From positions 1,128 through 65,127 of the forward strand of contig JACRPL010000016.1 of the NCBI GenBank assembly GCA_016223245.1: DNA of 64,000 nucleotides, in the 5' to 3' direction. This stretch comes from Candidatus Saganbacteria bacterium (GTDB taxonomy: Bacteria; Margulisbacteria; WOR-1; XYC2-FULL-46-14; XYC2-FULL-37-10). Of the stretch, positions 1,382 through 57,696 are shown in pieces. A program made the translations under genes and the position numbers. The notes under the pieces are model-generated. The model was not told the DNA's origin and searched no databases. It saw only the letters and a program-made list of their open reading frames with translations. Position 1 is the stretch's first letter; every line of letters starts with the position of its first letter.

Positions 1382-1443
1382 CGAGTCAATTTTGGCGGGG
1401 TTAAAAGTTCCGAGAGAGAAGACCGAAAATTAAAAGTCGGAAT

Positions 1444-2649
1444 TTGAATAATATGAAAAAATTATTATATATTTTAATATTTACATTGTTGGTCATTGGA
1501 AATTGGTCATTGGTCATTTGCGCAGCGTCTCACGCGGCGTATTATTACCCCCAGTATTGGATCGGCGGGACAATACAAGACCCTGACGCGAAAGCGACGG
1601 GCATGGCCGTTTATTTTTATGAATTCCTGAACAAACTTCAGGATGGGAGCGGGTTTGCCTATGGGCTAGCTGAAAAAGATAAATATTTATTAAATGCCGG
1701 CAGTACGCCGATGACCGATCCGTTCTTGTTCCTCGGCGGGACCGACTATCACGTCTTTATCCCGAACAGCAATCAAGCCGATCCGGCAAACGGATATGGC
1801 GCAGATAAAGTCGATGTGAAATTATCAAGGTCGGGGATCGATTATGCGAACCTTGTGCTTACCAAAGGCGGCGGCAAGATTGACGGCAATTATGTATTTC
1901 CTCCGGCTCCGGCGGCAGGCCCGGGGGCTGGCATAGCGTATCCTCCGCCGTTATTCGATTATATAAAATTCGGCAACCGAATTTACCAAAAGGCGTTGGT
2001 TGAAAAGGGTGATAAGTTCATAGTGCCTGCGACGCCAAAAATATTGGCGAAAGTCCAAAGCGAGCTTGCCTTAAAATCCGGGTCATTATCGATCAAGATC
2101 AACGAATCCGGCGGGCCTACGCCAGCACTCACAATTGGCGAGACAAAAATAACCAACAAAGAGCTGTCTGCATCGGGTGTTGGCGCAAAAAGCGTAAATG
2201 CCCTGTCTTTTTCATACGATGTGCCTGAGGAAAACAAATTGGGCGAAGGGGTTAATACTATAAAGATATACGTCGAGAACGCCGACGGCACAGCTACGTT
2301 TGAGGTCGCGACAGTTACCGTCATGTCAGGCCCCGCGTCGATACTGGGGCCAGTGCTTACGTTCCCATCGCCTTTCTCCCCGACAAAAGATAAGACGGTT
2401 ACGATCCAATATACCCTTTCGACGGCAGCCGACATCGATGTCCATATCTTCTCGCCGACAGGCGAAATTGTCAAAAAATTCATACTGCTTTCGGGGCAGG
2501 AAGGCGGCAACGCGGGCGTCAACAAGATAACCTGGGACGGCGTGAAGCCAACAGGCCTGACGCTCGGCAATGCTATATATTCCGGCGTCGTTGTAAGCCA
2601 TGCGCAGGGAAAGATCCTTGGCAAGTTCATGTTGAGCGTTGTTGATTGA
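1444..2649 (+). CDS. Secreted protein with LLVIGNWSLVI-type signal peptide and FlgD-Ig-like C-terminal domain
   Basis: The signal peptide is encoded by (TTGGTCA)n heptamer repeats. The C-terminal ...ITWDGVKPTGLTLGNAIYSGVV resembles a FlgD Ig-like / secretion-tail domain. Confidence 0.55.
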   Translation: MNNMKKLLYILIFTLLVIGNWSLVICAASHAAYYYPQYWIGGTIQDPDAKATGMAVYFYEFLNKLQDGSGFAYGLAEKDKYLLNAGSTPMTDPFLFLGGTDYHVFIPNSNQADPANGYGADKVDVKLSRSGIDYANLVLTKGGGKIDGNYVFPPAPAAGPGAGIAYPPPLFDYIKFGNRIYQKALVEKGDKFIVPATPKILAKVQSELALKSGSLSIKINESGGPTPALTIGETKITNKELSASGVGAKSVNALSFSYDVPEENKLGEGVNTIKIYVENADGTATFEVATVTVMSGPASILGPVLTFPSPFSPTKDKTVTIQYTLSTAADIDVHIFSPTGEIVKKFILLSGQEGGNAGVNKITWDGVKPTGLTLGNAIYSGVVVSHAQGKILGKFMLSVVD

Positions 2650-3243: not shown

Positions 3244-3354
3244 ATGGTTAATGAGGCCGCTTTATATTCATTTTTGTCTATTGTCATATTAGGGGCTATC
3301 GTAGTAACGATATTTTCTGTATTTTCCGGCAAGCCTCCAAAAGGGATGTTGTAG
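3244..3354 (+). pseudogene. KG(M/I)L-type small peptide paralog carrying a +1 frameshift
   Basis: The start MVNEAALYSFLSIVILGAI is in one frame and the conserved end VVTIFSVFSGKPPKGML* is in the +1 frame, with an extra C near 3300. Confidence 0.3.
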
Positions 3355-3438
3355 GGGAAAATGGATATAAGGAGATCAGGTAAAAAACCTGATTATCTGA
3401 TCATCAGATATTCTGCCTACTGATAATCTGATACTCTG

Positions 3439-3509
3439 GAGACTAGTTAGGAACCTGCGAGTGAACCCTGCCTGCCGGCAGGCACGGTTCGCGGTTCCTA
3501 ACTAGTCTC
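3439..3509. repeat. About 70-bp near-perfect palindromic element (arms actagttaggaacc, core gcctgccggcaggc); second copy at 39238
   Basis: The sequence gagactagttaggaacctgcgagtgaaccctgcctgccggcaggcacggttcgcggttcctaactagtctc is present. Confidence 0.85.
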
Positions 3510-3620: not shown

Positions 3621-5306
3621 ATGAAAAATAAAATACTAGTTTATTCGCTGTTAGTTGTAAGCTGTATGTTCCTGCTGTCTGCTGTCTCATTAGCGGAAAT
3701 ACCGAGGACTATTAATGTCCAGGGGCGTGTTAGCGATAAAGGCATTCCAATTTCTGACGGGAAATATCAAATGTCTGTTGACTTTACGGACAAAGATGGG
3801 AACACGATCGCAGATGGCACGGAAAAAATATTTAATGATAAAGAAATAAAGAATGGCATGTTTAATTTGCAAATTAATTTGACTGGTGCCAATGATTGGC
3901 AATTAAAATTTGATAAGCCTTATTGGGTTCTTGTTGAACTTCCGAACTTAGGCTTGAAGTTTTTGCAACCCTTAACCTCCGTTCCATACGCCTTAAACGC
4001 GGATAGCCTTGGCGGCCTCCCTGCGACTTCGTATGCCACAAAAGATGCAAGTGGAAAGATCATTGGCGCATCGGGAGATTTTGTGAAAAAGAGCGGGGAT
4101 GATATGAGCGGGGTACTTGGGATTTCAGCTAAGGATGAAACAGCGGCTTTACGCGTTACGGACGACAGGACGACTATTACTCCTCCATGGTTTGGAATAC
4201 CTTTTGGTGCTATTGCCGCCAAGGGCGATGGAACGGTTGGCTTAAGCGCATATAGTAAAAACAATATGGGGATTTATGCTAAATCAGATTCAAAGGCAGG
4301 AATATTTGGAGTTGGGAAAGAAGCAGGCGTACATGGTGAAAAATCCAATGATGTCTTTGGCGAGCTTGGGACTGCTCGTTATTTCGCAGGCGTTTATCCG
4401 CCCATGGGCGTTTTTGGAACATCAACGGATATAGGTATTTATGGCTCAGTGGGGGAATCCTCCAAAGCGACGACATTGTCAGGCAAAAAGATCCCGTCAA
4501 TTGGTGTTGCAGGCTGGTCGCCTGATGGGAGAGGGGTTAGCGGTGGAAGCTCCACTGGGAGTGGCGTCTATGGAAGTAGCTGGTATGAATTTCCGGATAC
4601 TAGCTTATGGGTAAACAATAAGGATTACGCAGCAGGTGGATATTTTGAAGCACAAAAAGGATTTGGAGTAATTGGAACTTCTTTTTCGAATAATGGCGGA
4701 AATGGTGGCGGAGTTTTGGGAAGAAGTTTGGATACAAACGATGTTGTATCAGGCTTTTTTGCGAAAAATTTTGGTGTTGCAGGAATTAGCAATAAAGGAA
4801 ATGGTGTTTTTGGCGTTAGCAGTATGAACGATGGAATTTATGGGTACTCGCATGATAAAAACCATGCTGGGGTCTACGCGACGAATGCTGCCGCCACAGG
4901 AAACGCGATAAAAGCAGATGGAAAAGTTCAAATTGGATCGACAAAGGACCAATATTATGCTGATGTTGTTTTGGAAATTAATAAAGGGAAAATACAAATA
5001 GATAACGAAAGTAAAACAACTACTGTTGGGCCTGCAGCTTATTCAATTCATAATGTGGAGATAAATAAAATCGTCGGGAAAGTAACATTAAACGCTTCCA
5101 ATTCCAATTCTTACAATGGCGTAACTGTAACTAATGGTTACGTGAAAAAAGATTCTATAATATTATTAACTATTTTTGACTCAAGCTTTTCTCCCGCATC
5201 GGCGCACGACCAAGCTCTAGTTATCACTAAGCAATATGATGGGGGCTTTGAAGTTGTTTTCAGGTCAAAGCCAATAGGTGGATTTAATTTTCTAGTGATC
5301 AATTAG
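3621..5306 (+). CDS. Glycine-rich fibre-like surface protein with signal peptide and tail-fibre-like KSGDDMSGVL motif (paralog family, subfamily B)
   Basis: It has a signal peptide, a PRTINVQGR motif, PYALNADSLGGLPATSY...KKSGDDMSGVLGI, GVxGxS-type glycine repeats and the C-terminal GGFNFLVIN shared with the 19375 gene. Confidence 0.6.
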   Translation: MKNKILVYSLLVVSCMFLLSAVSLAEIPRTINVQGRVSDKGIPISDGKYQMSVDFTDKDGNTIADGTEKIFNDKEIKNGMFNLQINLTGANDWQLKFDKPYWVLVELPNLGLKFLQPLTSVPYALNADSLGGLPATSYATKDASGKIIGASGDFVKKSGDDMSGVLGISAKDETAALRVTDDRTTITPPWFGIPFGAIAAKGDGTVGLSAYSKNNMGIYAKSDSKAGIFGVGKEAGVHGEKSNDVFGELGTARYFAGVYPPMGVFGTSTDIGIYGSVGESSKATTLSGKKIPSIGVAGWSPDGRGVSGGSSTGSGVYGSSWYEFPDTSLWVNNKDYAAGGYFEAQKGFGVIGTSFSNNGGNGGGVLGRSLDTNDVVSGFFAKNFGVAGISNKGNGVFGVSSMNDGIYGYSHDKNHAGVYATNAAATGNAIKADGKVQIGSTKDQYYADVVLEINKGKIQIDNESKTTTVGPAAYSIHNVEINKIVGKVTLNASNSNSYNGVTVTNGYVKKDSIILLTIFDSSFSPASAHDQALVITKQYDGGFEVVFRSKPIGGFNFLVIN

Positions 5307-27620: not shown

Positions 27621-28212
27621 TCTTTTTTTTGCAATAGTAGTCTCGTATCTTATTGGTTCGATCCCCTTTAGTTTGATCTTTGCGAAATTATTTACGGATA
27701 CAGATGTTAGGCAAAAGGGCTCGGGCAACGTCGGCGCTACAAATGTCCTTGTCACGACCGGAAAAAAAAGAGCCGCGATCCTATCGGTGTTTTTTGATAT
27801 TCTAAAAGGATTTGTCGCTGTCGCAATTTCTAAGATATTATTTGGAGCCGATATTTATGCCTATACTGCCGGATTGTTTTCGATAATAGGACATGATTTT
27901 CCTGTTTTTCTTGGATTCAAAGGCGGGAAGGGCGTTGCGGCCACGACAGGGGTCTTGATCGCTCTTAATCCAATAGCAATTTGGTTTTGTCTGCTGATCT
28001 ATATTGTTTCGATCTCAATATCCCGCTATCTAATATTATCGAGCATAATTACGATCGGATTTATTCCCTTTATCTTGTGGTTTTTAGGTGAAGGGTTATT
28101 TGGCATAATATTTGGTATTTTGGCGTTTCTTTTAGCTTTATTCGTCCATCGTAATGATATAATAAGACTCCTTTCGGGCAAGGAAGCAAAATTTGATCGG
28201 GGCGTAGCTTAG
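27610..28212 (+). CDS. plsY: Glycerol-3-phosphate acyltransferase PlsY (probable TTG start; the track ORF begins at 27553)
   Basis: It contains LIGSIPFSLIF, GSGNVGATNV and the HDFPVFLGFKGGKGVA motifs. Confidence 0.75.
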   Translation: MFSNLFFAIVVSYLIGSIPFSLIFAKLFTDTDVRQKGSGNVGATNVLVTTGKKRAAILSVFFDILKGFVAVAISKILFGADIYAYTAGLFSIIGHDFPVFLGFKGGKGVAATTGVLIALNPIAIWFCLLIYIVSISISRYLILSSIITIGFIPFILWFLGEGLFGIIFGILAFLLALFVHRNDIIRLLSGKEAKFDRGVA

Positions 28213-28271
28213 CTTGGTGGAGCACTCGCTTGGGGTGCGAGAGGTCGGCCGTTCAAATCGGCTCGCCCCGA
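28198..28271 (+). tRNA. tRNA-Pro (anticodon GGG)
   Basis: The acceptor stem is cggggcg/cgccccg and the anticodon loop is ttGGGgt on a ctcgc/gcgag stem. Confidence 0.65.
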
Positions 28272-28285
28272 TTCTAATCTTTTTT

Positions 28286-28362
28286 CGGAGCGTGGCTCAG
28301 CTTGGTAGAGCGCCTGGTTCGGGACCAGGAGGTCGTGGGTTCGAATCCCGCCGCTCCGACCA
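28286..28362 (+). tRNA. tRNA-Pro (anticodon CGG), encoded CCA included
   Basis: The acceptor stem is cggagcg/cgctccg, the anticodon loop is ttCGGga on a cctgg/ccagg stem, and the T-loop is ttcgaat. Confidence 0.7.
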
Positions 28363-28439
28363 GACTGTACTCTGTGCGGTTTCGGCGGACGATGGGGAAA
28401 GGCCAGCAAAACAGCCCTGCGCGATTTTTCCCCTGTGTT

Positions 28440-28902
28440 CCGCCACAAAATTATACGGCTGCCGCCATTCCCATGAGCATATTGAGCAGTTATCGCCGCA
28501 CCACATTCACCACACCGCAAAAGACCAACAAAAGGGAAATTATGGCCGCTTTTTGTTTTTCTAGGTTTTGAGTTATCTTTTAACACTTTTTGAACGGCTT
28601 CAAAAGTCGCTCGGGAAACAATTGGATCAAACTTGCCTTCGTAAGCTTCGCCGTTGTGGATTATCACAACTCAGGCGATCACTTAAACTTGCTAATGTAT
28701 GCTTGCCATCTGCAAATTCTTCAAAGGCCAATTTGATAATTCTTGCTTTCACTGGATCTGGATCAATGTTTCTAGTTTTGGGATTATTCACATAGCCAAG
28801 CGGAGCCAATCCATTCCATTCACCGCGCCTGAGTTTTTGACGTTTCCCGCGCTTCACATTTTCAGATAAGTTATCTGAATAATAAGAAATAAGGGAGGGC
28901 AT
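28440..28902 (-). pseudogene. Remnant of a large serine recombinase (recombinase domain plus zinc ribbon; catalytic N-domain missing; internal frameshift)
   Basis: ...YYSDNLSENVKRGKRQKLRRGEWNGLAPLGY... lies in ORF 28627..28902 and ...LLRCGECGAAI... in the shifted ORF 28209..28667. The remnant abuts the tRNA-Pro genes. Confidence 0.6.
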
Positions 28903-28910
28903 TATAATTC

Positions 28911-31900
28911 CTAATCAGAAGAAATCATCTGCTTATCAATTCCACCATATTGATTTATAAAAGATAATACTCGAAGACCGCCGTTCACTCCTTCTTCTGG
29001 AAGTTGAAGGATATTAGGATTTTCTTGGGCAATGGTTCTGGCACGTGTCCCAACATTTATACTTAAGGCCTCAGGAAAAGTCATAAGTAGTTCGCGATCA
29101 ATTTGATGTGTTCTGGCTGAATCAGCCATAATAAGCGTGCTAGTCATATCTATTCCTAAGGTATTTATGCAGAATCTAGCAGCATCTTCTTTGTGTTGTA
29201 ATACAACCTTAACGCTGGTCCTGCCAGCTTTATAGAGTTTTACTTCAATTCCGGTATCAGACAGCATTTCTCTCGCTTTTTCAATAAAGTGGTTTCTCGG
29301 ACTTTTAACATGGCGTAAATCTATTCGAAACTCCGGGTTAATGCGGGGCGTTCTTTGGTCTATTTCAAATTGACCCTTAAAATTCTTATCTAGTAAAGCT
29401 ATAACTCTTTGGCGAAAATCAGTAGTTATGCGACTTTTGCGATTATATTCTTCCAGATAAACTTTTGACCCCGCAGCATCAAAGGTAAATCCTCTGGTGG
29501 CACCATCAGAAAAGATCACTAGTCTATGGCGCAATGCTGCAGGAATATATTGAACAACCCTTTCATCAACATTAGCCTCAAGGTCTTCAGTTTCTAAAAT
29601 GAATCGTTTACCATTCCCAAGAATATCAAGTATTTGCTTAAGCATGCTACCGGAGAGATGCTCATCGGTTACGACTAATACTCCGTCAAGGTCAGCAATG
29701 ACATTATCAATTTTAGTAATTTTAGAAGGTTTATCTGTTTTTGTTTCTATTGCTACCCCTAACATGTTGGCTAGTTCCCTGTAATAAAAACGGGATAGAT
29801 TGGCAAACCTTTTTGATCTAACCACCCCGTATCCTTCTTGGTAAGCCAAGTGGAACTCTTTGAAGTGATCTTTATCATCAAAAAATGCAGGGGTATGTCT
29901 GTCACCATACATAAATTTTTGTCTTATTTGATGAGGAACTGCATCGGGTTCCGCGGCCGCTTGGACAAATATCACTGCCGGACCTTCTATTTTAGAAATG
30001 TCATCCAACCTGGCCGCTTGTGTATTCTTCTTTTTCCCCACTCGTAAATAAAGGTACTTATTGCCAGGGTACCAGAAATATAAACGATATGGCTGAGCCT
30101 CTTTAGGTTTATCTGCTTCCTTTTTTATGGTACTCACCAATTTGTTAAATCCATTTGTGCGGGTTAACCCATCCAAGAAATCTCTATCTTCTCCAAAATC
30201 CTCAGGAACCACATTGCCCAAGAGAGCCCTATTTAGTGCCATAAAATAATTACGGTAACCTTTAAAGGCATCCGGTATGTGCGGTGATGTCCTATGCGGA
30301 TCACTAACTGAAGTAGAAGCGTCAACTACGATGACAATCGGGTTTTGTTGAACCAATGTTCTTAATTGAGAAGAAGTAAAAAGATTAAGATTTAAAACAT
30401 ATTCATTAGTATGGCTTTCGGTGGAGCCAACTTTTGTACTTACAACCGGGATATTTGTACCTACAATTGTCTTCCTGCCATGCCGTTCCTGCAAAATTGG
30501 TGTTAAGGCTACCTCGCCATAAGAAAGATTTGCAACGACCATCACTTTTCGCCCAATTGTTTCAGCATGTTTTTGAATTTCAAGGATTTTTTCTCTTAGA
30601 AGATGTGCCTCATAAGCAACTGCGCGAACCTGAAGTTTCAGCTCTGTGGGAATATCTCTTCTATAGAAACGCCCTTTTTCGCCTTCTTCTACCATAACCA
30701 GATATTCTTCAAAGGTTAGTTCTTTTGGTGAAGATCCTTCCACCACTTTAATAGCATCAAAATAATTTAGGAGTAGGTGCAAGGGATTATTTTTATCAAA
30801 ACTACCATGTATAATTTCTCTTTCGGCTTCAAATGACGGAGAAATCGGCAATAAAGAGTCGAGCATGTTATGATCGGCCAAAACATTTAAGGCCTGGAAA
30901 AGCTTGTCCATTTTATTCCCAGCTATTTCTCTCAGCCCTTTTATGTCCCCAGGTTTAATTTTCTCCAATACTTTTGCATTTAAACTAGACGTAATTGCCT
31001 TTACATAATCCAAGTAACTCTTAACACGTTTTCTTTTCGTATCGTCAGGGAAATTTACCAGTATCATCCCACCAGGGCGGCTATTGTCCGTGAAATACTC
31101 ATATTCTTCAAAATAATCAATAAATTCTTTTATTAATACCAATTGTCCTATGCTTTCTGCCCCCCTAAGAAGCTCTGGCACAACATTTGATCCCAATGCC
31201 TTAGTTTCGCCCTTCCACCATTCCTCATCATGCGTAGGTAATTCGGGTAACAACGTCGCTTTTAAATAGGCCATTTCGTCCGTTATACTTTCATGAGACT
31301 TGCAAATAGCCGCAAGCAGTGCTTTTAACCCCATGTGCCACTCGCTCAATTCTTTCGTGCTTTTTGCTTTCGAGATTAATATAGAAAGAGCAGATTGAAC
31401 GTATGAACCAACAGCATCAGATGCGCCAAGGATAAACCAGCTATTGTTGTCATATATCCTAACTTCTTTATCAGCAATTATAGCTTTTGCTTCATTGTCC
31501 CATTCTTTCAGTTCCGCAGTGTTTTTTACCTTCCCAAGCAAAATTGGAAGTGTATACTCTAAGTGCCAATCGGGCGATCCAAATTTCTCAAAATAATCAA
31601 CAAGCAGGGTCATGATTTCTTTATTCCATTCTTCTAGTTCTTTAACATTTTCAACTTTTGAAAGCAAAACTTTCAAAAGTTTTACGCTGTCATTGATTAC
31701 ATCCTCAATTCTAGAAAGGGAAGATTTTTCGAATTTTTGAAAATAATCAGTAATCAGTAATAGAATTTCTCTGTTCCATTCTTTTAATTCATCAAAGCTT
31801 TTTACCTTCCCAACTAAAATGGGAAGAACTTCTTTTGCATAGGTATCGGCCGTAAATAGTTGACGGCAATCAGCAACCAGAGACTTTATGCTTTTTAATT

Positions 31901-33644
31901 CTTCAATACTTCCTACCGCTTTAATTAAAGTTAGAAGGGCGCTATTTTTGTAAATATACGGCTCTCCAGCAATCAGGGATAGGATTTCTTTACTCCATTC
32001 TTTTAACTCCTCGATGCTTTTCACCTTTTCAAGTAAAGCGGGAAGAATTTCTTTTATATAATGATCGGACTTTTCGTTGGGTGGCCAATGATATTCTGGA
32101 CCAAGTAAATTAATAAGTCTGAATACAAGATTCATTGTTTCATAATTTGTTTTATTCTTTTCTTTAATAATTTCGGGCCACAATTTAGATAACTTTTGAG
32201 ATGCAATCCGGGATATAGTCTGAGCACATGATCTCTCCATCTCTTCTCTTTGTGCTTCTTTTTCTTTACTACCCCATAAGTCGCCAATAATTCTGAAAAG
32301 CCCAACTTCGATTGGTGCATATTTCATTAATGTTGGTTTGCTATCTCTTGTTGCATGGAATTCAAGGCTGATATATTGCTTTGAAAATTCAATAAATTCT
32401 TCTACATTTGAAAATTCATCGGCGTTCCTGCTCGCTATTTTAATCTTTAGTGCTTCTATTAGCCGATTCCTAATTTGTTCCCCATCTTCATGATCGTAAA
32501 GGGCAATTTGAAGCCATAGATAAGCCAATAAATATGACACCTCGATGTTTTCACCGCTTAATAGATACGGCAATAAATTATAAAATAGAGGCCTACAAAT
32601 AGTAGCAAGCTTATCTTTTTTGCTATTTTCCTTACAGATGTACGCAAAGGTAATAAATGCTCTCTCTGATAATAATGGTGCATTAAGTGCTAGTGTTTTT
32701 AAAAATTCAAGACATTCTTCTGAACTGCTTTCAAGCATAAAAAGACCTAACGTCTGGATGAAAAATCCATTTTCTTTAAGATTTGGCTTACCAGCGGCTT
32801 CTTTAATCAATATCCCGGCAAATTCTGCTTTTTGCTCAGGGCTGATATTATGATAAATATAAGACATAATATTGTAAATATCTTTATTAATTTCACGAAA
32901 TATATCCCGATGATATCCGCATGAATCTAACGGCATAACGATCCCTAGCTCAAGTATCTTTCTTGCAAATTCTATTTTTTGGTCAGAAGGGAGATTATAT
33001 GCAATCTGATGCATAAGATATGTCAGCCCCTTCTCGATAGATAGGAAGGGAATGCCTAATTTCCCCTTTGTTTTTTCGCCAAAGCCTGCATATAAAAGAC
33101 GATTCCAACAAAACTCTTTCGTAAACTTGAGAAAATCAATCAAAGTCCCTGCAAGTAAAAAGCTTTTTCCTGTGCTGAGAAAAGGCATAACCCTACTTAT
33201 CTTAATCATGTTTTGATAGATCTTTAGATGTGTTTTTAATGCAATCTTGTCTTGAGATGAGTGATATAATTCTTTATCTCCAACCTTTGCAAGCAATTCT
33301 TGCAATCTTCCGATCAGTCTCAGCCCTTTTCTTTCTTTGCCGAAAGGCAAACTCAAGCATTGAGAAGTAAATGTTTCTGGGATTACGCTAAGGTCAAATG
33401 CTATGTTTGTTGCCTCTTTTACTCGGATTGGGTTAATTTTCAGTCTTCCAGTAAATCTACATAGAACATCTCTTCCCTTTAGTGCAGTCATGGTTTCATC
33501 AACCAAATGAGTTCTTTCAGCTTCTGTCTGAGCAACGGAAGATTTAATTAGAGCATTTCTTAAAAAAGGATTACCTCTTCCAAAATGATAGCCAATAAAG
33601 CCGCGTGTTCGATAAAAGATAGGGCTACTGACCATTTTTAACAT
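28911..33644 (-). CDS. Giant (1577 aa) multidomain hypothetical protein with an N-terminal helical-repeat region, a central alpha/beta domain of unknown function and a C-terminal HAD-like domain
   Basis: There is a five-fold tandem repeat of about 38 aa (KVKSxEELKEWxKEIxxLIxDYFxKF). The C-terminal region carries VIADLDGVLVV, resembling HAD motif I, and IFSDGATRG, resembling Cof-type motif II. Its DNA is AT-rich relative to its neighbours. Confidence 0.5.
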   Translation of the reverse strand: MLKMVSSPIFYRTRGFIGYHFGRGNPFLRNALIKSSVAQTEAERTHLVDETMTALKGRDVLCRFTGRLKINPIRVKEATNIAFDLSVIPETFTSQCLSLPFGKERKGLRLIGRLQELLAKVGDKELYHSSQDKIALKTHLKIYQNMIKISRVMPFLSTGKSFLLAGTLIDFLKFTKEFCWNRLLYAGFGEKTKGKLGIPFLSIEKGLTYLMHQIAYNLPSDQKIEFARKILELGIVMPLDSCGYHRDIFREINKDIYNIMSYIYHNISPEQKAEFAGILIKEAAGKPNLKENGFFIQTLGLFMLESSSEECLEFLKTLALNAPLLSERAFITFAYICKENSKKDKLATICRPLFYNLLPYLLSGENIEVSYLLAYLWLQIALYDHEDGEQIRNRLIEALKIKIASRNADEFSNVEEFIEFSKQYISLEFHATRDSKPTLMKYAPIEVGLFRIIGDLWGSKEKEAQREEMERSCAQTISRIASQKLSKLWPEIIKEKNKTNYETMNLVFRLINLLGPEYHWPPNEKSDHYIKEILPALLEKVKSIEELKEWSKEILSLIAGEPYIYKNSALLTLIKAVGSIEELKSIKSLVADCRQLFTADTYAKEVLPILVGKVKSFDELKEWNREILLLITDYFQKFEKSSLSRIEDVINDSVKLLKVLLSKVENVKELEEWNKEIMTLLVDYFEKFGSPDWHLEYTLPILLGKVKNTAELKEWDNEAKAIIADKEVRIYDNNSWFILGASDAVGSYVQSALSILISKAKSTKELSEWHMGLKALLAAICKSHESITDEMAYLKATLLPELPTHDEEWWKGETKALGSNVVPELLRGAESIGQLVLIKEFIDYFEEYEYFTDNSRPGGMILVNFPDDTKRKRVKSYLDYVKAITSSLNAKVLEKIKPGDIKGLREIAGNKMDKLFQALNVLADHNMLDSLLPISPSFEAEREIIHGSFDKNNPLHLLLNYFDAIKVVEGSSPKELTFEEYLVMVEEGEKGRFYRRDIPTELKLQVRAVAYEAHLLREKILEIQKHAETIGRKVMVVANLSYGEVALTPILQERHGRKTIVGTNIPVVSTKVGSTESHTNEYVLNLNLFTSSQLRTLVQQNPIVIVVDASTSVSDPHRTSPHIPDAFKGYRNYFMALNRALLGNVVPEDFGEDRDFLDGLTRTNGFNKLVSTIKKEADKPKEAQPYRLYFWYPGNKYLYLRVGKKKNTQAARLDDISKIEGPAVIFVQAAAEPDAVPHQIRQKFMYGDRHTPAFFDDKDHFKEFHLAYQEGYGVVRSKRFANLSRFYYRELANMLGVAIETKTDKPSKITKIDNVIADLDGVLVVTDEHLSGSMLKQILDILGNGKRFILETEDLEANVDERVVQYIPAALRHRLVIFSDGATRGFTFDAAGSKVYLEEYNRKSRITTDFRQRVIALLDKNFKGQFEIDQRTPRINPEFRIDLRHVKSPRNHFIEKAREMLSDTGIEVKLYKAGRTSVKVVLQHKEDAARFCINTLGIDMTSTLIMADSARTHQIDRELLMTFPEALSINVGTRARTIAQENPNILQLPEEGVNGGLRVLSFINQYGGIDKQMISSD

Positions 33645-33882
33645 CTCCCTTTAAAAATAGACAACACGAGTTCAATAAGCAAGTATATACTGTGCTGATT
33701 TATTTTACATCCTTTTCTGTCGACCCTCTCAGCGGACCCACATATACATCGTGAAATTTCTGCCGAAATTTCAATATTTTTCTATAACTCTCTTTGGTAT
33801 TTGTGTTCAACGTTTTAAAAAGTGGGAATGAAGATATAAAGCGCCGCGTGGGAATTATTGGCTTGCTATCGTCCTGTTGACT

Positions 33883-34110
33883 TTAATGGGTGTTCCTTTT
33901 CTTCTTTTTAGGCACAAATTCCAGAATATCCCCAACGGAGCAGTCTAATAAGGCGCAGAGTTTTTCCAGCGTCTCAAATTTAATGCCGGAAACTTCCTCA
34001 TTGTAAAGACTAGATAGGGTATTTGGATTTATTCCTGTTTTTCTGGCAATCTCAGCGGCGCGCATTTTTCGCTCCCCTAGCAATTTCCCCAAATGAATTT
34101 TTATTGGCAT
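33883..34110 (-). CDS. XRE-family helix-turn-helix transcriptional regulator
   Basis: It has a Cro/C1-type HTH (MRAAEIARKTGINPNTLSSLYNEE) and is 75 aa. Confidence 0.7.
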   Translation of the reverse strand: MPIKIHLGKLLGERKMRAAEIARKTGINPNTLSSLYNEEVSGIKFETLEKLCALLDCSVGDILEFVPKKKKRNTH

Positions 34111-34206
34111 TCCCCCTTTTCCTTTGTTGTTATCAAATTATACGCCCACAATAATACTTCAGTCAAATGCAATAATAGAAAGTACCATTTTGGGCATAAA
34201 AAGCTC

Positions 34207-34236
34207 TTGACATTTATACTACTATATTGGTATAAT
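34207..34236 (+). promoter_or_regulatory. Near-consensus sigma70 promoter (TTGACA-N18-TATAAT) upstream of the DprA-like gene
   Basis: The sequence ttgacatttatactactatattggtataat is present, with the ATG at 34275. Confidence 0.5.
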
Positions 34237-34274
34237 ATATTATCGGAAGCATATAAATATGGAGGGGGGTAGAT

Positions 34275-34835
34275 ATGAAATGTGTTGGTATCGAGGGTTC
34301 AAGAAGTCTGCCAGATAATTTTCGCTTTCATGTTCGCGAGGTTGTTTCACATCTTCTGGCAAAAGGGTGTTACATAAATTCTGGCGGCGCAATGGGAGCT
34401 GATTCATATGTAATTGCCGCGCTTCTCAGATACGGCAAGGCATACAGAGGAGTGATCTATTCGGCATGGAGTTATTTCTCTGGTTTTCCCTATTCGGTAA
34501 GGCAGGAAATCGGCGAGTTCGCCAAAAGAGGCGGGAGAATAGATTGGGGTACGGTTCAGCCCGACCCGATGGGAAAAGAAGTAATCGCTGGTCTTTTGGG
34601 AAGAAATAGAAAATTAGTGCAAAATTCTGATGCGCTAATTGCGTATTTTTATGGAGAATCCAGAGGAACAATATATACGATAAGGGAAGCAAGAAAAAAG
34701 AACCTCCCGATAATTGTTTTTGTTTGCGATCCTGTTTCATCCCGATTATATCAAAATCTCGACAGACAAATCGGTGGCCAAATCAAAATCTTCGAGATCA
34801 GCACACAATCTATGCCGGATAAACTTTTTGTTTGA
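34275..34835 (+). CDS. Short DprA/Smf-like Rossmann-fold (SLOG-family, DUF2493-like) protein
   Basis: It has GIEGSRSLP..., SGGAMGADSYVIAALL and LLGRNRKLVQNSDALIAYF...TIYTIREARKKNLPIIVF, which match the DprA core motifs. Confidence 0.55.
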   Translation: MKCVGIEGSRSLPDNFRFHVREVVSHLLAKGCYINSGGAMGADSYVIAALLRYGKAYRGVIYSAWSYFSGFPYSVRQEIGEFAKRGGRIDWGTVQPDPMGKEVIAGLLGRNRKLVQNSDALIAYFYGESRGTIYTIREARKKNLPIIVFVCDPVSSRLYQNLDRQIGGQIKIFEISTQSMPDKLFV

Positions 34836-35536
34836 TGAATATTGTAAAATCGCTTATAATAATGTTTGTTCTCAGCCAGAGGCTGATCCGCCTTTGGCGG
34901 AAAAATAGGTTCGAGCATCGTTCAGTATGTTCGATGTGCCTTTTTCATGGTATAATAACAATTATGTTCATTCCCCATGACACTCACGGGAAGCCAATTC
35001 GCTTCGCGATCCTACTTATTGTCGTATTTGCCGCTTTATTTTCATTTTACGGCTTAAAAGAAACCCGGGACAAGCAGCAGACAAGAGAACTTGAAGCAAA
35101 GGTCAAGAAGATCCAAAAAAAGCTCGATTCAACCCCTTCCGGCTGGCCGTTGCGCGGCGCGATCAATTCCGGATATGGATATCGGTATTCCCCATGGCGC
35201 GGAATGCATACAGGCATAGATATCAAGGCATCATATGGGGATCCTGTCAGGGCTACTGCCCCAGGCTTTGTTTCTTATTCGGGATGGATGCAGGGTTATG
35301 GGAAAACCGTAGAGATCGACCATAAAAATGGTTTCAAAACTTTGTACGGGCATAATAGCGTACTCGCTGTCAATGTCGGAGAAAAGATTGAGAAAGAGCA
35401 AATTATTTCTTATGTCGGCCTGACCGGCTTTTCAACCGGAGCCCATCTGCATTATGAAGTCAGGAAATATGAAAGCCCGATCAATCCGGTCGCTTTCTTA
35501 AACTTAAGCGTATTATCTGCCGGCAAGTATTTCTGA
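34832..35536 (+). CDS. M23-family metallopeptidase (LytM-like); exact start uncertain
   Basis: It has HTGIDIKASYGDPV, YGKTVEIDHKNGFKTLYGHNS and GAHLHYEV. Confidence 0.75.
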   Translation: MMNIVKSLIIMFVLSQRLIRLWRKNRFEHRSVCSMCLFHGIITIMFIPHDTHGKPIRFAILLIVVFAALFSFYGLKETRDKQQTRELEAKVKKIQKKLDSTPSGWPLRGAINSGYGYRYSPWRGMHTGIDIKASYGDPVRATAPGFVSYSGWMQGYGKTVEIDHKNGFKTLYGHNSVLAVNVGEKIEKEQIISYVGLTGFSTGAHLHYEVRKYESPINPVAFLNLSVLSAGKYF

Positions 35537-38887: not shown

Positions 38888-39148
38888 ATGCAAATGATTA
38901 TCGATTATATCGAAGCCGCATTAAAGAAAGCGCACTACGACATGATCCAGGATCAAGAGCCGTTTTATGCCGAGGTGCCTGGGCTTGACGGGGTCTATGC
39001 CAGCGGTAAAACATTGGAGGACTGCCGCAAAAATCTGGCAGAAGTAATTGATGATTGGATCGTTGTTCGGCTGAGAAGGGGATTGTCGATTCCGCCAATT
39101 GAAGGGCATAAGATCGAAGAATTGAAGGAATTGAAAATTAATGCCTAA
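38888..39148 (+). CDS. hicB: HicB-family antitoxin (UPF0150-like)
   Basis: It has YYAEVPGLDGVYASGKTLEDCRKNLAEVIDDWI. Confidence 0.55.
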   Translation: MQMIIDYIEAALKKAHYDMIQDQEPFYAEVPGLDGVYASGKTLEDCRKNLAEVIDDWIVVRLRRGLSIPPIEGHKIEELKELKINA

Positions 39149-57617: not shown

Positions 57618-57696
57618 ATCGGCACCTCTTAAGGCATTATACAAGGCGAAAGCATGCACTGTCAAGTCGTATTATAATATTGACTTGTAAGGATGG

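Follow-up and report, generated by a model that had tools for sequence, protein, structure and literature searches.

In a 64,000-nucleotide stretch of DNA from a Candidatus Saganbacteria bacterium (contig JACRPL010000016.1; hereafter the window), a gene for a small XRE-family repressor lies back to back with a gene for a 186-residue relative of DprA, termed mini-DprA here. We show that mini-DprA is an intact single-domain SLOG protein of the DprA clade rather than a fragment, that a portable cassette of ~1.1 kb is made up of the XRE gene, two back-to-back promoters, the mini-DprA gene and the ~100 bp that follow it, and that the regulator within this cassette has been swapped repeatedly among related loci. 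With moderate confidence, we propose that the pair represents a repressor-gated early gene for the handling of single-stranded DNA (ssDNA), carried by an integrative element that uses large serine recombinases and resides beside tRNA genes; the element in the window is decayed, its recombinase being a pseudogene. The XRE gene (HTH_26 family; 33883-34110, minus strand) encodes 75 residues with a basic C-terminal tail, KKKKRNTH, and is divergent from the mini-DprA gene (34275-34835, plus strand), which is preceded by a GGAGG ribosome-binding site at 34261-34265 upstream of its ATG at 34275; the spacer between the two genes measures 164 bp (34111-34274). On its other side, across a gap of 238 bp, the XRE gene faces an orphan giant open reading frame (ORF) at 28911-33644 on the minus strand, 1577 residues long from its first ATG and 1574 as called elsewhere. 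A first-pass annotation made from the sequence alone had placed these ORFs correctly by position and strand, with the XRE gene on the other strand from the DprA-like ORF and pointing toward the giant one, and all four peptide strings it quoted are found in the 186-residue translation.

The sole Pfam match on mini-DprA is PF02481 (DNA_processg_A), which scores 33.3 bits against a gathering threshold of 29.6 and aligns residues 2-155 to positions 45-193 of the 212-position profile, leaving its first 44 unmatched. The Pfam scan detects neither a SAM domain nor the DprA winged-helix domain (PF17782), and the NCBIfam equivalog for dprA, TIGR00732, reaches 22 bits against a cutoff of 191.15; because both the equivalog and the architecture fail, the protein is not a canonical DprA. 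An AlphaFold model built from a 45-sequence alignment that included distant relatives (predicted local distance difference test score, pLDDT, of 90.8; predicted template modelling score, pTM, of 0.87) alternates strands with helices in the style of a Rossmann fold; an alignment of only the 19 close homologues described below gave an unusable model with a pLDDT of 49. Compared with the PDB by Foldseek, the model finds ShosA at the top (E 4.5e-9, template modelling score, TM, 0.73), followed by the DprA proteins of H. pylori (HpDprA; TM 0.70-0.72), R. palustris and S. pneumoniae and then by the molybdenum cofactor (Moco) carrier protein, YpsA, LOG and the TRPM SLOG domain; structures of the DprA clade rank above LOG and ThsA. 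Mini-DprA thus has the Rossmannoid fold that unites DprA, LOG, YpsA, the Moco carrier protein and the ThsA and TRPM SLOG domains, and the earlier assignment of the ORF to a DprA/SLOG fold holds both by the above-threshold PF02481 match and by a model that matches ShosA and DprA structures best.

Two motifs have been found essential for ssDNA binding by HpDprA, G-S/T/A-R (G50-R52) and F/L/Y-x-x-R-N/D (F140-N144), with Tyr108 and Gly164 making further ssDNA contacts, and its Rossmann domain by itself binds ssDNA (PMC3950713). In a profile alignment to HpDprA both motifs are present in mini-DprA, the first as G8-S9-R10 in the loop after the first strand and the second as L107-L-G-R110-N111, and F71 and G131 align to the contacts Tyr108 and Gly164. 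Across the wider family G8, R10, R110 and G131 never vary, and N111 is kept at 90% or more, within a core of ~150 residues that is followed by a lineage-specific stretch of the last ~35. The catalytic motif of LOG phosphoribohydrolases is PGGxGTxxE; the equivalent segment of mini-DprA, which runs from Y126 to E138 (YGESRGTIYTIRE), has no PGG and its Glu is out of register.

This architecture belongs to a family of its own. A word-indexed search recovered 19 close homologues of 56-81% identity, all of ~186 residues, and a profile search of 1.84 billion representatives recovered 566 proteins at E <= 1e-3 and 25 at E <= 1e-30, nearly all of them stand-alone, 150-220 residues in length and aligned over residues 2-150. 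Canonical DprAs (265-380 residues, with PF17782) surface in that search only at 1e-12 to 1e-5 and, abundant as they are, go largely unrecovered, given that just 566 relatives emerged from 1.84 billion representatives. PF02481 is matched by 39 of 39 members of the wider family at E <= 0.01, and SLOG cluster 4 by 6 of the 39. Mini-DprA is therefore a member of a rare and distinct short clade and no truncated competence gene: the conservation of a full-length short family rules out the alternative, raised in the first-pass annotation, of a fragment of a canonical competence DprA.

To place the pair in context we compared the window with numbered homologous loci (L002-L023); scans of GTDB and JGI yielded 3 and 4 loci, respectively. 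A conserved DNA block of ~1.05-1.1 kb begins near the stop codon of the XRE gene (33835-33910) and reaches 34934, with flanks that vary by locus. Between loci the XRE and mini-DprA genes are under purifying selection (dN/dS 0.07-0.20, and 0.09-0.20 for XRE alone), and their synonymous sites are near saturation (dS ~1-2). The right end of the block falls at the same nucleotide, ...GTTCG(A), in six locus types (the window, L004, L006/8/9, L010, L011 and L020), beyond which lie an M23 peptidase gene in the window, a short element that we call X and then a recombinase in L010, unrelated DNA in L006 and L020, a T-run and tRNA-Arg in L004, and in L011 the 3' end of an inverted tRNA-Pro that overlaps the block by TCG. 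The end itself is a terminal hairpin, AATAGGTTCGAGCATCGTTCAGTATGTTCGA (34903-34934, plus strand; more narrowly 34911-34934), whose GGTTCGA...CGA was aligned by MAFFT to the T-arm and acceptor end of tRNA-Pro; in the window a T-run follows it, it is scored as terminator-like and its RNA fold has a z-score of -3.85. A 30-nucleotide insertion with a 9-bp hairpin (34872-34901, plus strand) is present in the window and in L006/L008 and absent from L010/L004. A search of Rfam at permissive thresholds across 28-37 kb returned only two tRNAs, with no family matched by the conserved downstream block or by element X. The longest ORF of the M23 peptidase gene (34832-35536, plus strand) begins at a TTG at 34832 and overlaps the mini-DprA stop; its first ~100 bp coincide with the conserved terminal part of the cassette, which is non-coding, and translation more likely starts at one of two ATGs, at 34934 or 34964, with TGGTATAAT upstream at 34948-34956.

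Two back-to-back promoter sites lie in the intergenic spacer. As the first-pass annotation had pointed out, the mini-DprA gene is preceded by TTGACA-N18-TATAAT, which we place at 34207-34236 on the plus strand: TTGACA (34207-34212)-N18-TGgTATAAT, with TATAAT at 34231-34236 and an extended -10 TG at 34228-34229, matches the consensus at 12 of 12 positions. The window contains two exact copies of TTGACA-N16-18-TATAAT, where shuffled sequence predicts 0.04, and all six aligned orthologous spacers share the same -35 box, CTTGACA. (The other perfect TTGACA-N18-TATAAT of the window, at 57636-57665 on the minus strand, adjoins a tRNA-Val pair.) A second promoter-like site, absent from the first-pass annotation, faces the XRE gene at 34137-34166 on the minus strand (TTGACT at 34166-34161, N18, TATAAT at 34142-34137; 11 of 12), and its boxes are kept in most of the same six spacers, L004 being the clear exception. 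Conservation of the promoter boxes holds despite the near-saturated synonymous sites of the flanking genes. Just past the mini-DprA stop an outward promoter-like site, TTGATG-N17-TATAAT (34832-34860, plus strand; 10 of 12), retains largely invariant columns across six loci that have different downstream flanks. As a candidate operator, a repeat search picked out an imperfect 11+11-nucleotide palindrome, TTATACTACTA/TATTGGTATAA (34214-34235), which spans the promoter spacer and the -10 box and is 82% complementary and AT-rich, its conservation across loci not being clear.

The regulator that would act on these sites is small and exchangeable. The XRE protein matches HTH_26 at 4.1e-22 over residues 6-68 and the full profile (positions 1-63 of 63), as well as HTH_3 at 9.6e-7, and its orthologues are 85, 75 and 71% identical in L010, L002 and L006, respectively. 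A divergent helix-turn-helix (HTH)/XRE gene accompanies mini-DprA in the window, L004, L006/8/9, L010, L011, L015-17 and L018, and a co-directional HTH gene in L002/L003. In L004 the HTH_26 regulator is just 38% identical while mini-DprA is 77% identical, and in L015-17 and L018 the XRE proteins retain 15-20% identity alongside 46-49% for mini-DprA. In L020, where mini-DprA is 76% identical, XRE is replaced by a 47-residue ribbon-helix-helix (RHH) protein of the RHH_3 family (30.6 bits; 1437-1580, plus strand), whose gene runs in the same direction as mini-DprA behind a promoter of its own, TTGACA-N17-TACAAT. The regulator has thus been swapped repeatedly, being an orthologous XRE, a non-orthologous XRE or an RHH protein, and since its type varies among loci the needed partner seems to be "a small repressor" rather than any particular protein. 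That an XRE gene often acts as the switch, as had been suggested at first pass, is a reasonable idea in that a small DNA-binding regulator recurs as the partner.

The second recurrent neighbor is a large serine recombinase. It lies directly downstream of mini-DprA and co-oriented with it in L010, L013 and L023 and nearby in L019, so that, with the pseudogene of the window, five lineages feature a serine recombinase at or near the gene. The L013 enzyme is intact, with 518 residues and Resolvase, Recombinase and Zn ribbon domains; in L010 the domains are divided over two ORFs, and in L019 and L023 the gene is cut short by the end of the contig. The recombinases of these loci are mutually only 25-26% identical, and the linkage is therefore either old or recurrent. 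The cassette is bordered by tRNA genes in six other loci (L002, L003, L004, L007, L010 and L011). In L002 (~3300-3465) a second copy of the tRNA-Pro(tgg) 3' end (AATCCAGTCACCCCGACCA) lies ~140 bp beyond the tRNA gene, which looks like an integration footprint at tRNA-Pro(tgg); a GIY-YIG ORF overlaps the tRNA region in that locus.

Further relatives point to mobile DNA as well. One of the more distant lies on a phage-like contig with HIRAN, PD-(D/E)XK and AAA_23 genes, another stands beside SSB and a weak, sub-threshold match to DUF932, and others are found on Nitrosococcus and Methylobacter plasmids; the occurrence of short stand-alone DprA/SLOG domains in phage and plasmid modules, as proposed earlier, is thereby borne out, with phage-like, plasmid and recombinase-bearing contexts all represented. 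A single metagenome-assembled genome holds two mini-DprA copies (L004/L005 and L007), one of them disrupted by a transposase, and the gene is frameshifted in L002/L003. In L007 (445-1851; 1899-2195) the second copy is cut to its C-terminal 84-98 residues and abuts tRNA-Pro(tgg). The 468-residue ORF beside this truncated copy is one that we take, by eye, to be an IS66-family transposase.

In the window, these features are arranged in the order tRNA-Pro(cgg), X, recombinase fragments, giant ORF, XRE gene and mini-DprA. A low-GC segment of 6.6 kb lies between tRNA-Pro(cgg) and the terminal hairpin, with a GC fraction of 0.34-0.39 across the giant ORF versus ~0.44 in the flanks. Two tRNA genes, tRNA-Pro(ggg) (28197-28272, plus strand) and tRNA-Pro(cgg) (28286-28362, plus strand), were called by both ARAGORN and Rfam, and the latter is the proposed left border of the island. 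Element X (28357-28473, plus strand), 117 nucleotides in length, is 94% identical to L010 3523-3639, whereas the genes there are ~73% identical; it follows directly after tRNA-Pro(cgg) in the window and after the terminal hairpin of the cassette in L010. A stretch of X is also found at L002 3527-3560. Its RNA fold is not significant (z = -1.6); candidate roles for X are those of a binding site for the recombinase, a leader or a small ORF (MGKGQQNSPARFFPC...).

The recombinase pseudogene (28462-28884, minus strand) consists of fragments in several frames that lack the N-terminal catalytic domain; they are 75-76% identical to the L010 recombinase by blastn and contain stop codons and frameshifts, and one of them matches Zn_ribbon_recom at 25.5 bits. 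An intact large serine recombinase with Resolvase, Recombinase and Zn ribbon domains is thus lacking in the window and, with its recombinase dead, the island is fixed in place. In L010 the recombinase is bracketed by inverted repeats (16-18 nucleotides, 88-94%; 3656-3746 and 5145-5178), which, together with the inversion of the window remnant relative to X, suggests that the recombinase segment is invertible or IS-like (insertion sequence-like). Furthermore, the hairpin-X junction of L010 is split in the window into a tRNA-X and a hairpin-chromosome junction that share only CGA, a pattern suggestive of site-specific integration with a very short core, blurred by later inversion and deletion; no empty site was retrieved. 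An island of the tyrosine-integrase type, with long direct repeats of a tRNA 3' end, was considered and rejected because the window has no long tRNA 3'-end repeat.

The giant ORF, by contrast with the two cassette genes, is no conserved partner. It has no match in Pfam, NCBIfam, PADLOC, PHROGs or a sequence search of the PDB, a homologue search returned only itself (an identical copy), and it is absent from all other loci carrying the pair; with no family match, no homologue and no shared neighborhood, nothing marks it as an effector or ties it to the pair, and the link to a large effector suggested at first pass is unsupported, the ORF adjoining the pair in no other locus. The N-terminal two thirds of its product include helical repeats of ~50-73 residues with an 'ELKEW' motif, and the matching DNA repeats are found at 31472-32068. 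It is probably island cargo downstream of the XRE gene. A scan of the 238-bp gap between the two detected no terminator and no promoter, the RNA structure of the gap is not significant (z = -1.2), and transcripts of the XRE gene may run on into the giant ORF. To the right of the cassette lie the housekeeping M23 peptidase gene (identified by Pfam) and ORFs that by eye we take to be an RsmI-like methyltransferase and a TonB-dependent receptor. An 86-residue ORF at 38888-39148 (plus strand), ~4 kb right of the cassette, resembles, again by eye, an antitoxin of the HicB/UPF0150 type.

In light of these results, we propose that at the divergent spacer an XRE dimer would repress the consensus promoter of mini-DprA and probably its own promoter too, and that absence of the repressor, on entry into a new cell or upon induction, would lead to a burst of mini-DprA. 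In intact elements the co-oriented downstream serine recombinase would be made together with it. Mini-DprA would then bind ssDNA via the conserved DprA base pocket (R10, F71, L107, R110, N111 and G131) and may protect or process the ssDNA of the element, recruit RecA or assist the recombinase, which would in turn integrate or excise the element at tRNA 3' ends. The giant orphan gene, positioned behind the repressor, would occupy the place of a co-transcribed cargo gene. In its boldest form the proposal makes mini-DprA a hitherto unrecognized partner of large serine recombinases, delivered in a repressor-gated burst as the element enters or leaves a genome. It would then serve in directionality or establishment and link the handling of ssDNA with site-specific recombination at the 3' ends of tRNA genes, and the giant ORF would be a new kind of gene for cargo or exclusion, comparable to rex; we regard that extended version as doubtful.

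Several observations weigh against the proposal of a repressor-gated ssDNA-handling gene. Searches of IMG/VR and of cultured phages yielded no close relative, and most homologous contigs measure just 1-3 kb, so that the context counts are small and unsystematic. The operator search of the spacer returned just AT-rich imperfect palindromes, none convincingly conserved, and the tRNA-like character of the terminal hairpin is no more than suggestive. RecA loading by mini-DprA is uncertain, given that the C-terminal region, which in characterized DprAs holds the dimer and RecA interfaces, is unconserved even within the family. The recombinase remnant of the window is inverted and truncated relative to L010, indicating a complex island history, and no clean direct repeats or attachment (att) sites bound the island, nor is a left end definable.

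Serine integrases have recruited unrelated proteins as their directionality factors, and mini-DprA could be viewed as such a factor, or as another accessory protein devoted to the neighboring serine recombinase, involved in integration versus excision or in synapsis, rather than as a general ssDNA/RecA mediator. Such a role fits its co-oriented position directly upstream of the recombinase in L010, L013 and L023, the nearby gene in L019 and the remnant in the window, as well as a linkage that the 25-26% identity among the enzymes marks as old or recurrent. However, the available DNA of L004, L006, L012, L014, L015-18 and L020 contains no recombinase, purifying selection on mini-DprA persists where the recombinase is dead or absent, and the ssDNA-pocket residues are invariant, although a purely protein-binding role would not need them. 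We therefore consider a dedicated accessory factor unlikely.

The repressor-gated reading also has to be weighed against a toxin-antitoxin (TA)-like or abortive-infection module akin to ShosTA or PsyrTA, in which the part of toxin or antitoxin would fall to the SLOG protein, with XRE or RHH to neutralize and repress it. The top PADLOC matches of mini-DprA are indeed ShosA (1.6e-6) and PsyrA (1e-3), the former also leading the Foldseek ranking; exchange of XRE for RHH regulators is the sort of diversity usual among type II antitoxins, the module resides in mobile elements, and a very strong promoter in need of repression would suit a harmful product. Yet ShosA, the ShosTA antitoxin (PDB 8zva, 9vzo), is a protein of ~320 residues with an N-terminal SAM domain, encoded beside the ShosT phosphoribosyltransferase toxin, whereas mini-DprA has no SAM domain, the best stretch of the ShosA hidden Markov model covers just residues 2-54, and neither the XRE protein nor the giant ORF matches any ShosT model. 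Similarly, the PsyrA match is confined to residues 3-55, and neither the XRE protein nor the giant ORF matches the RecQ-like helicase (PsyrT) of PsyrTA (RqlHI); as the partner test fails for both, the pair is neither ShosTA nor PsyrTA. Nor does it resemble a type II TA operon: in most loci the genes are divergent, with no co-directional overlapping operon, those of the window being 164 bp apart, and the regulators, at 47-77 residues (a 75-residue HTH in the window), comprise a DNA-binding domain and nothing more, with no room for a toxin-binding extension. Mini-DprA copies broken by frameshift or insertion sequence are tolerated with the regulator kept, an observation that is neutral in this respect. 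A TA-like function is, on this balance, distinctly improbable.

That mini-DprA might instead serve its host as a minimal DprA for transformation or recombinational repair, with XRE as a local regulator, is very unlikely. The above-threshold PF02481 match, both ssDNA motifs, the ability of the HpDprA Rossmann domain alone to bind ssDNA (PMC3950713), the housekeeping genes to the right (the M23 peptidase, with the others labeled by eye) and the database name would be consistent with it, NCBI holding the identical 186-residue protein under the label 'DNA-processing protein DprA'. These points are outweighed by the score of 22 bits against the 191-bit TIGR00732 cutoff, the missing SAM and winged-helix domains, a profile search that largely misses canonical DprAs (566 relatives in 1.84 billion), the two copies in one genome with one of them disrupted by an insertion sequence, the frameshifts in L002/L003, and flanks that differ at every locus with recurring recombinase, phage and plasmid contexts. 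Lastly, the nucleotide-signaling defense system entertained in the first-pass annotation, with a SLOG domain that senses or hydrolyzes a signaling nucleotide and the giant ORF as effector, is most improbable, since that ORF is an orphan absent from the other loci of the pair, neither it nor XRE has a PADLOC match above noise, no ShosT or PsyrT partner was found among these neighbors, the fold comparison places DprA-clade structures ahead of LOG and ThsA, the pocket conserves the very residues with which HpDprA holds ssDNA, and PGGxGTxxE is absent.

In comparison with the DprA/Smf proteins (PF02481) of H. pylori, S. pneumoniae and R. palustris, mini-DprA is reduced to a core of ~150 residues and a tail of ~35, with neither SAM nor PF17782 domains, its C-terminal interface region is unconserved, and its context is mobile, multi-copy and repressor-paired. 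It is similar in kind to the DprA-like, DUF2493 and cpYpsA SLOG proteins of phages (PHROG 768; the 153-residue 'DprA-like' protein of Streptomyces phage Mildred21), which are likewise stand-alone, of 120-220 residues, of the same fold and borne by mobile elements; the sequence similarity to them is nevertheless weak, PHROG 768 matching at 5.6e-5 over residues 6-70 only. To our knowledge, pairing with an XRE or RHH regulator and a large serine recombinase has not been described for these short phage families. In the switches of temperate phages and integrative elements, and in the C-protein control of restriction-modification systems, a small Cro/C1-type HTH gene is divergent from a strong early promoter. 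The cassette may be likened to these in its divergent HTH gene, its exchangeable regulator and its cargo behind the repressor, much as rexAB stands to cI, but the pair has no Cro-like second regulator and no lysis or structural genes, and the likeness would be one of organization only.

What is modestly new here is the recognition that a regulator and mini-DprA constitute a portable cassette with a sharp, tRNA-like end that recurs beside large serine recombinases. The database name 'DNA-processing protein DprA' is corrected accordingly, as what is present at this locus is no competence gene but a member of a rare single-domain clade borne by mobile elements, and the cassette marks serine-recombinase integrative elements in Saganbacteria-related genomes. 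Without a functional link to the recombinase, the copy in the window would be an ordinary mobile-element remnant; if such a link holds true, mini-DprA would become a candidate accessory factor for enzymes that are widely used in genome engineering.

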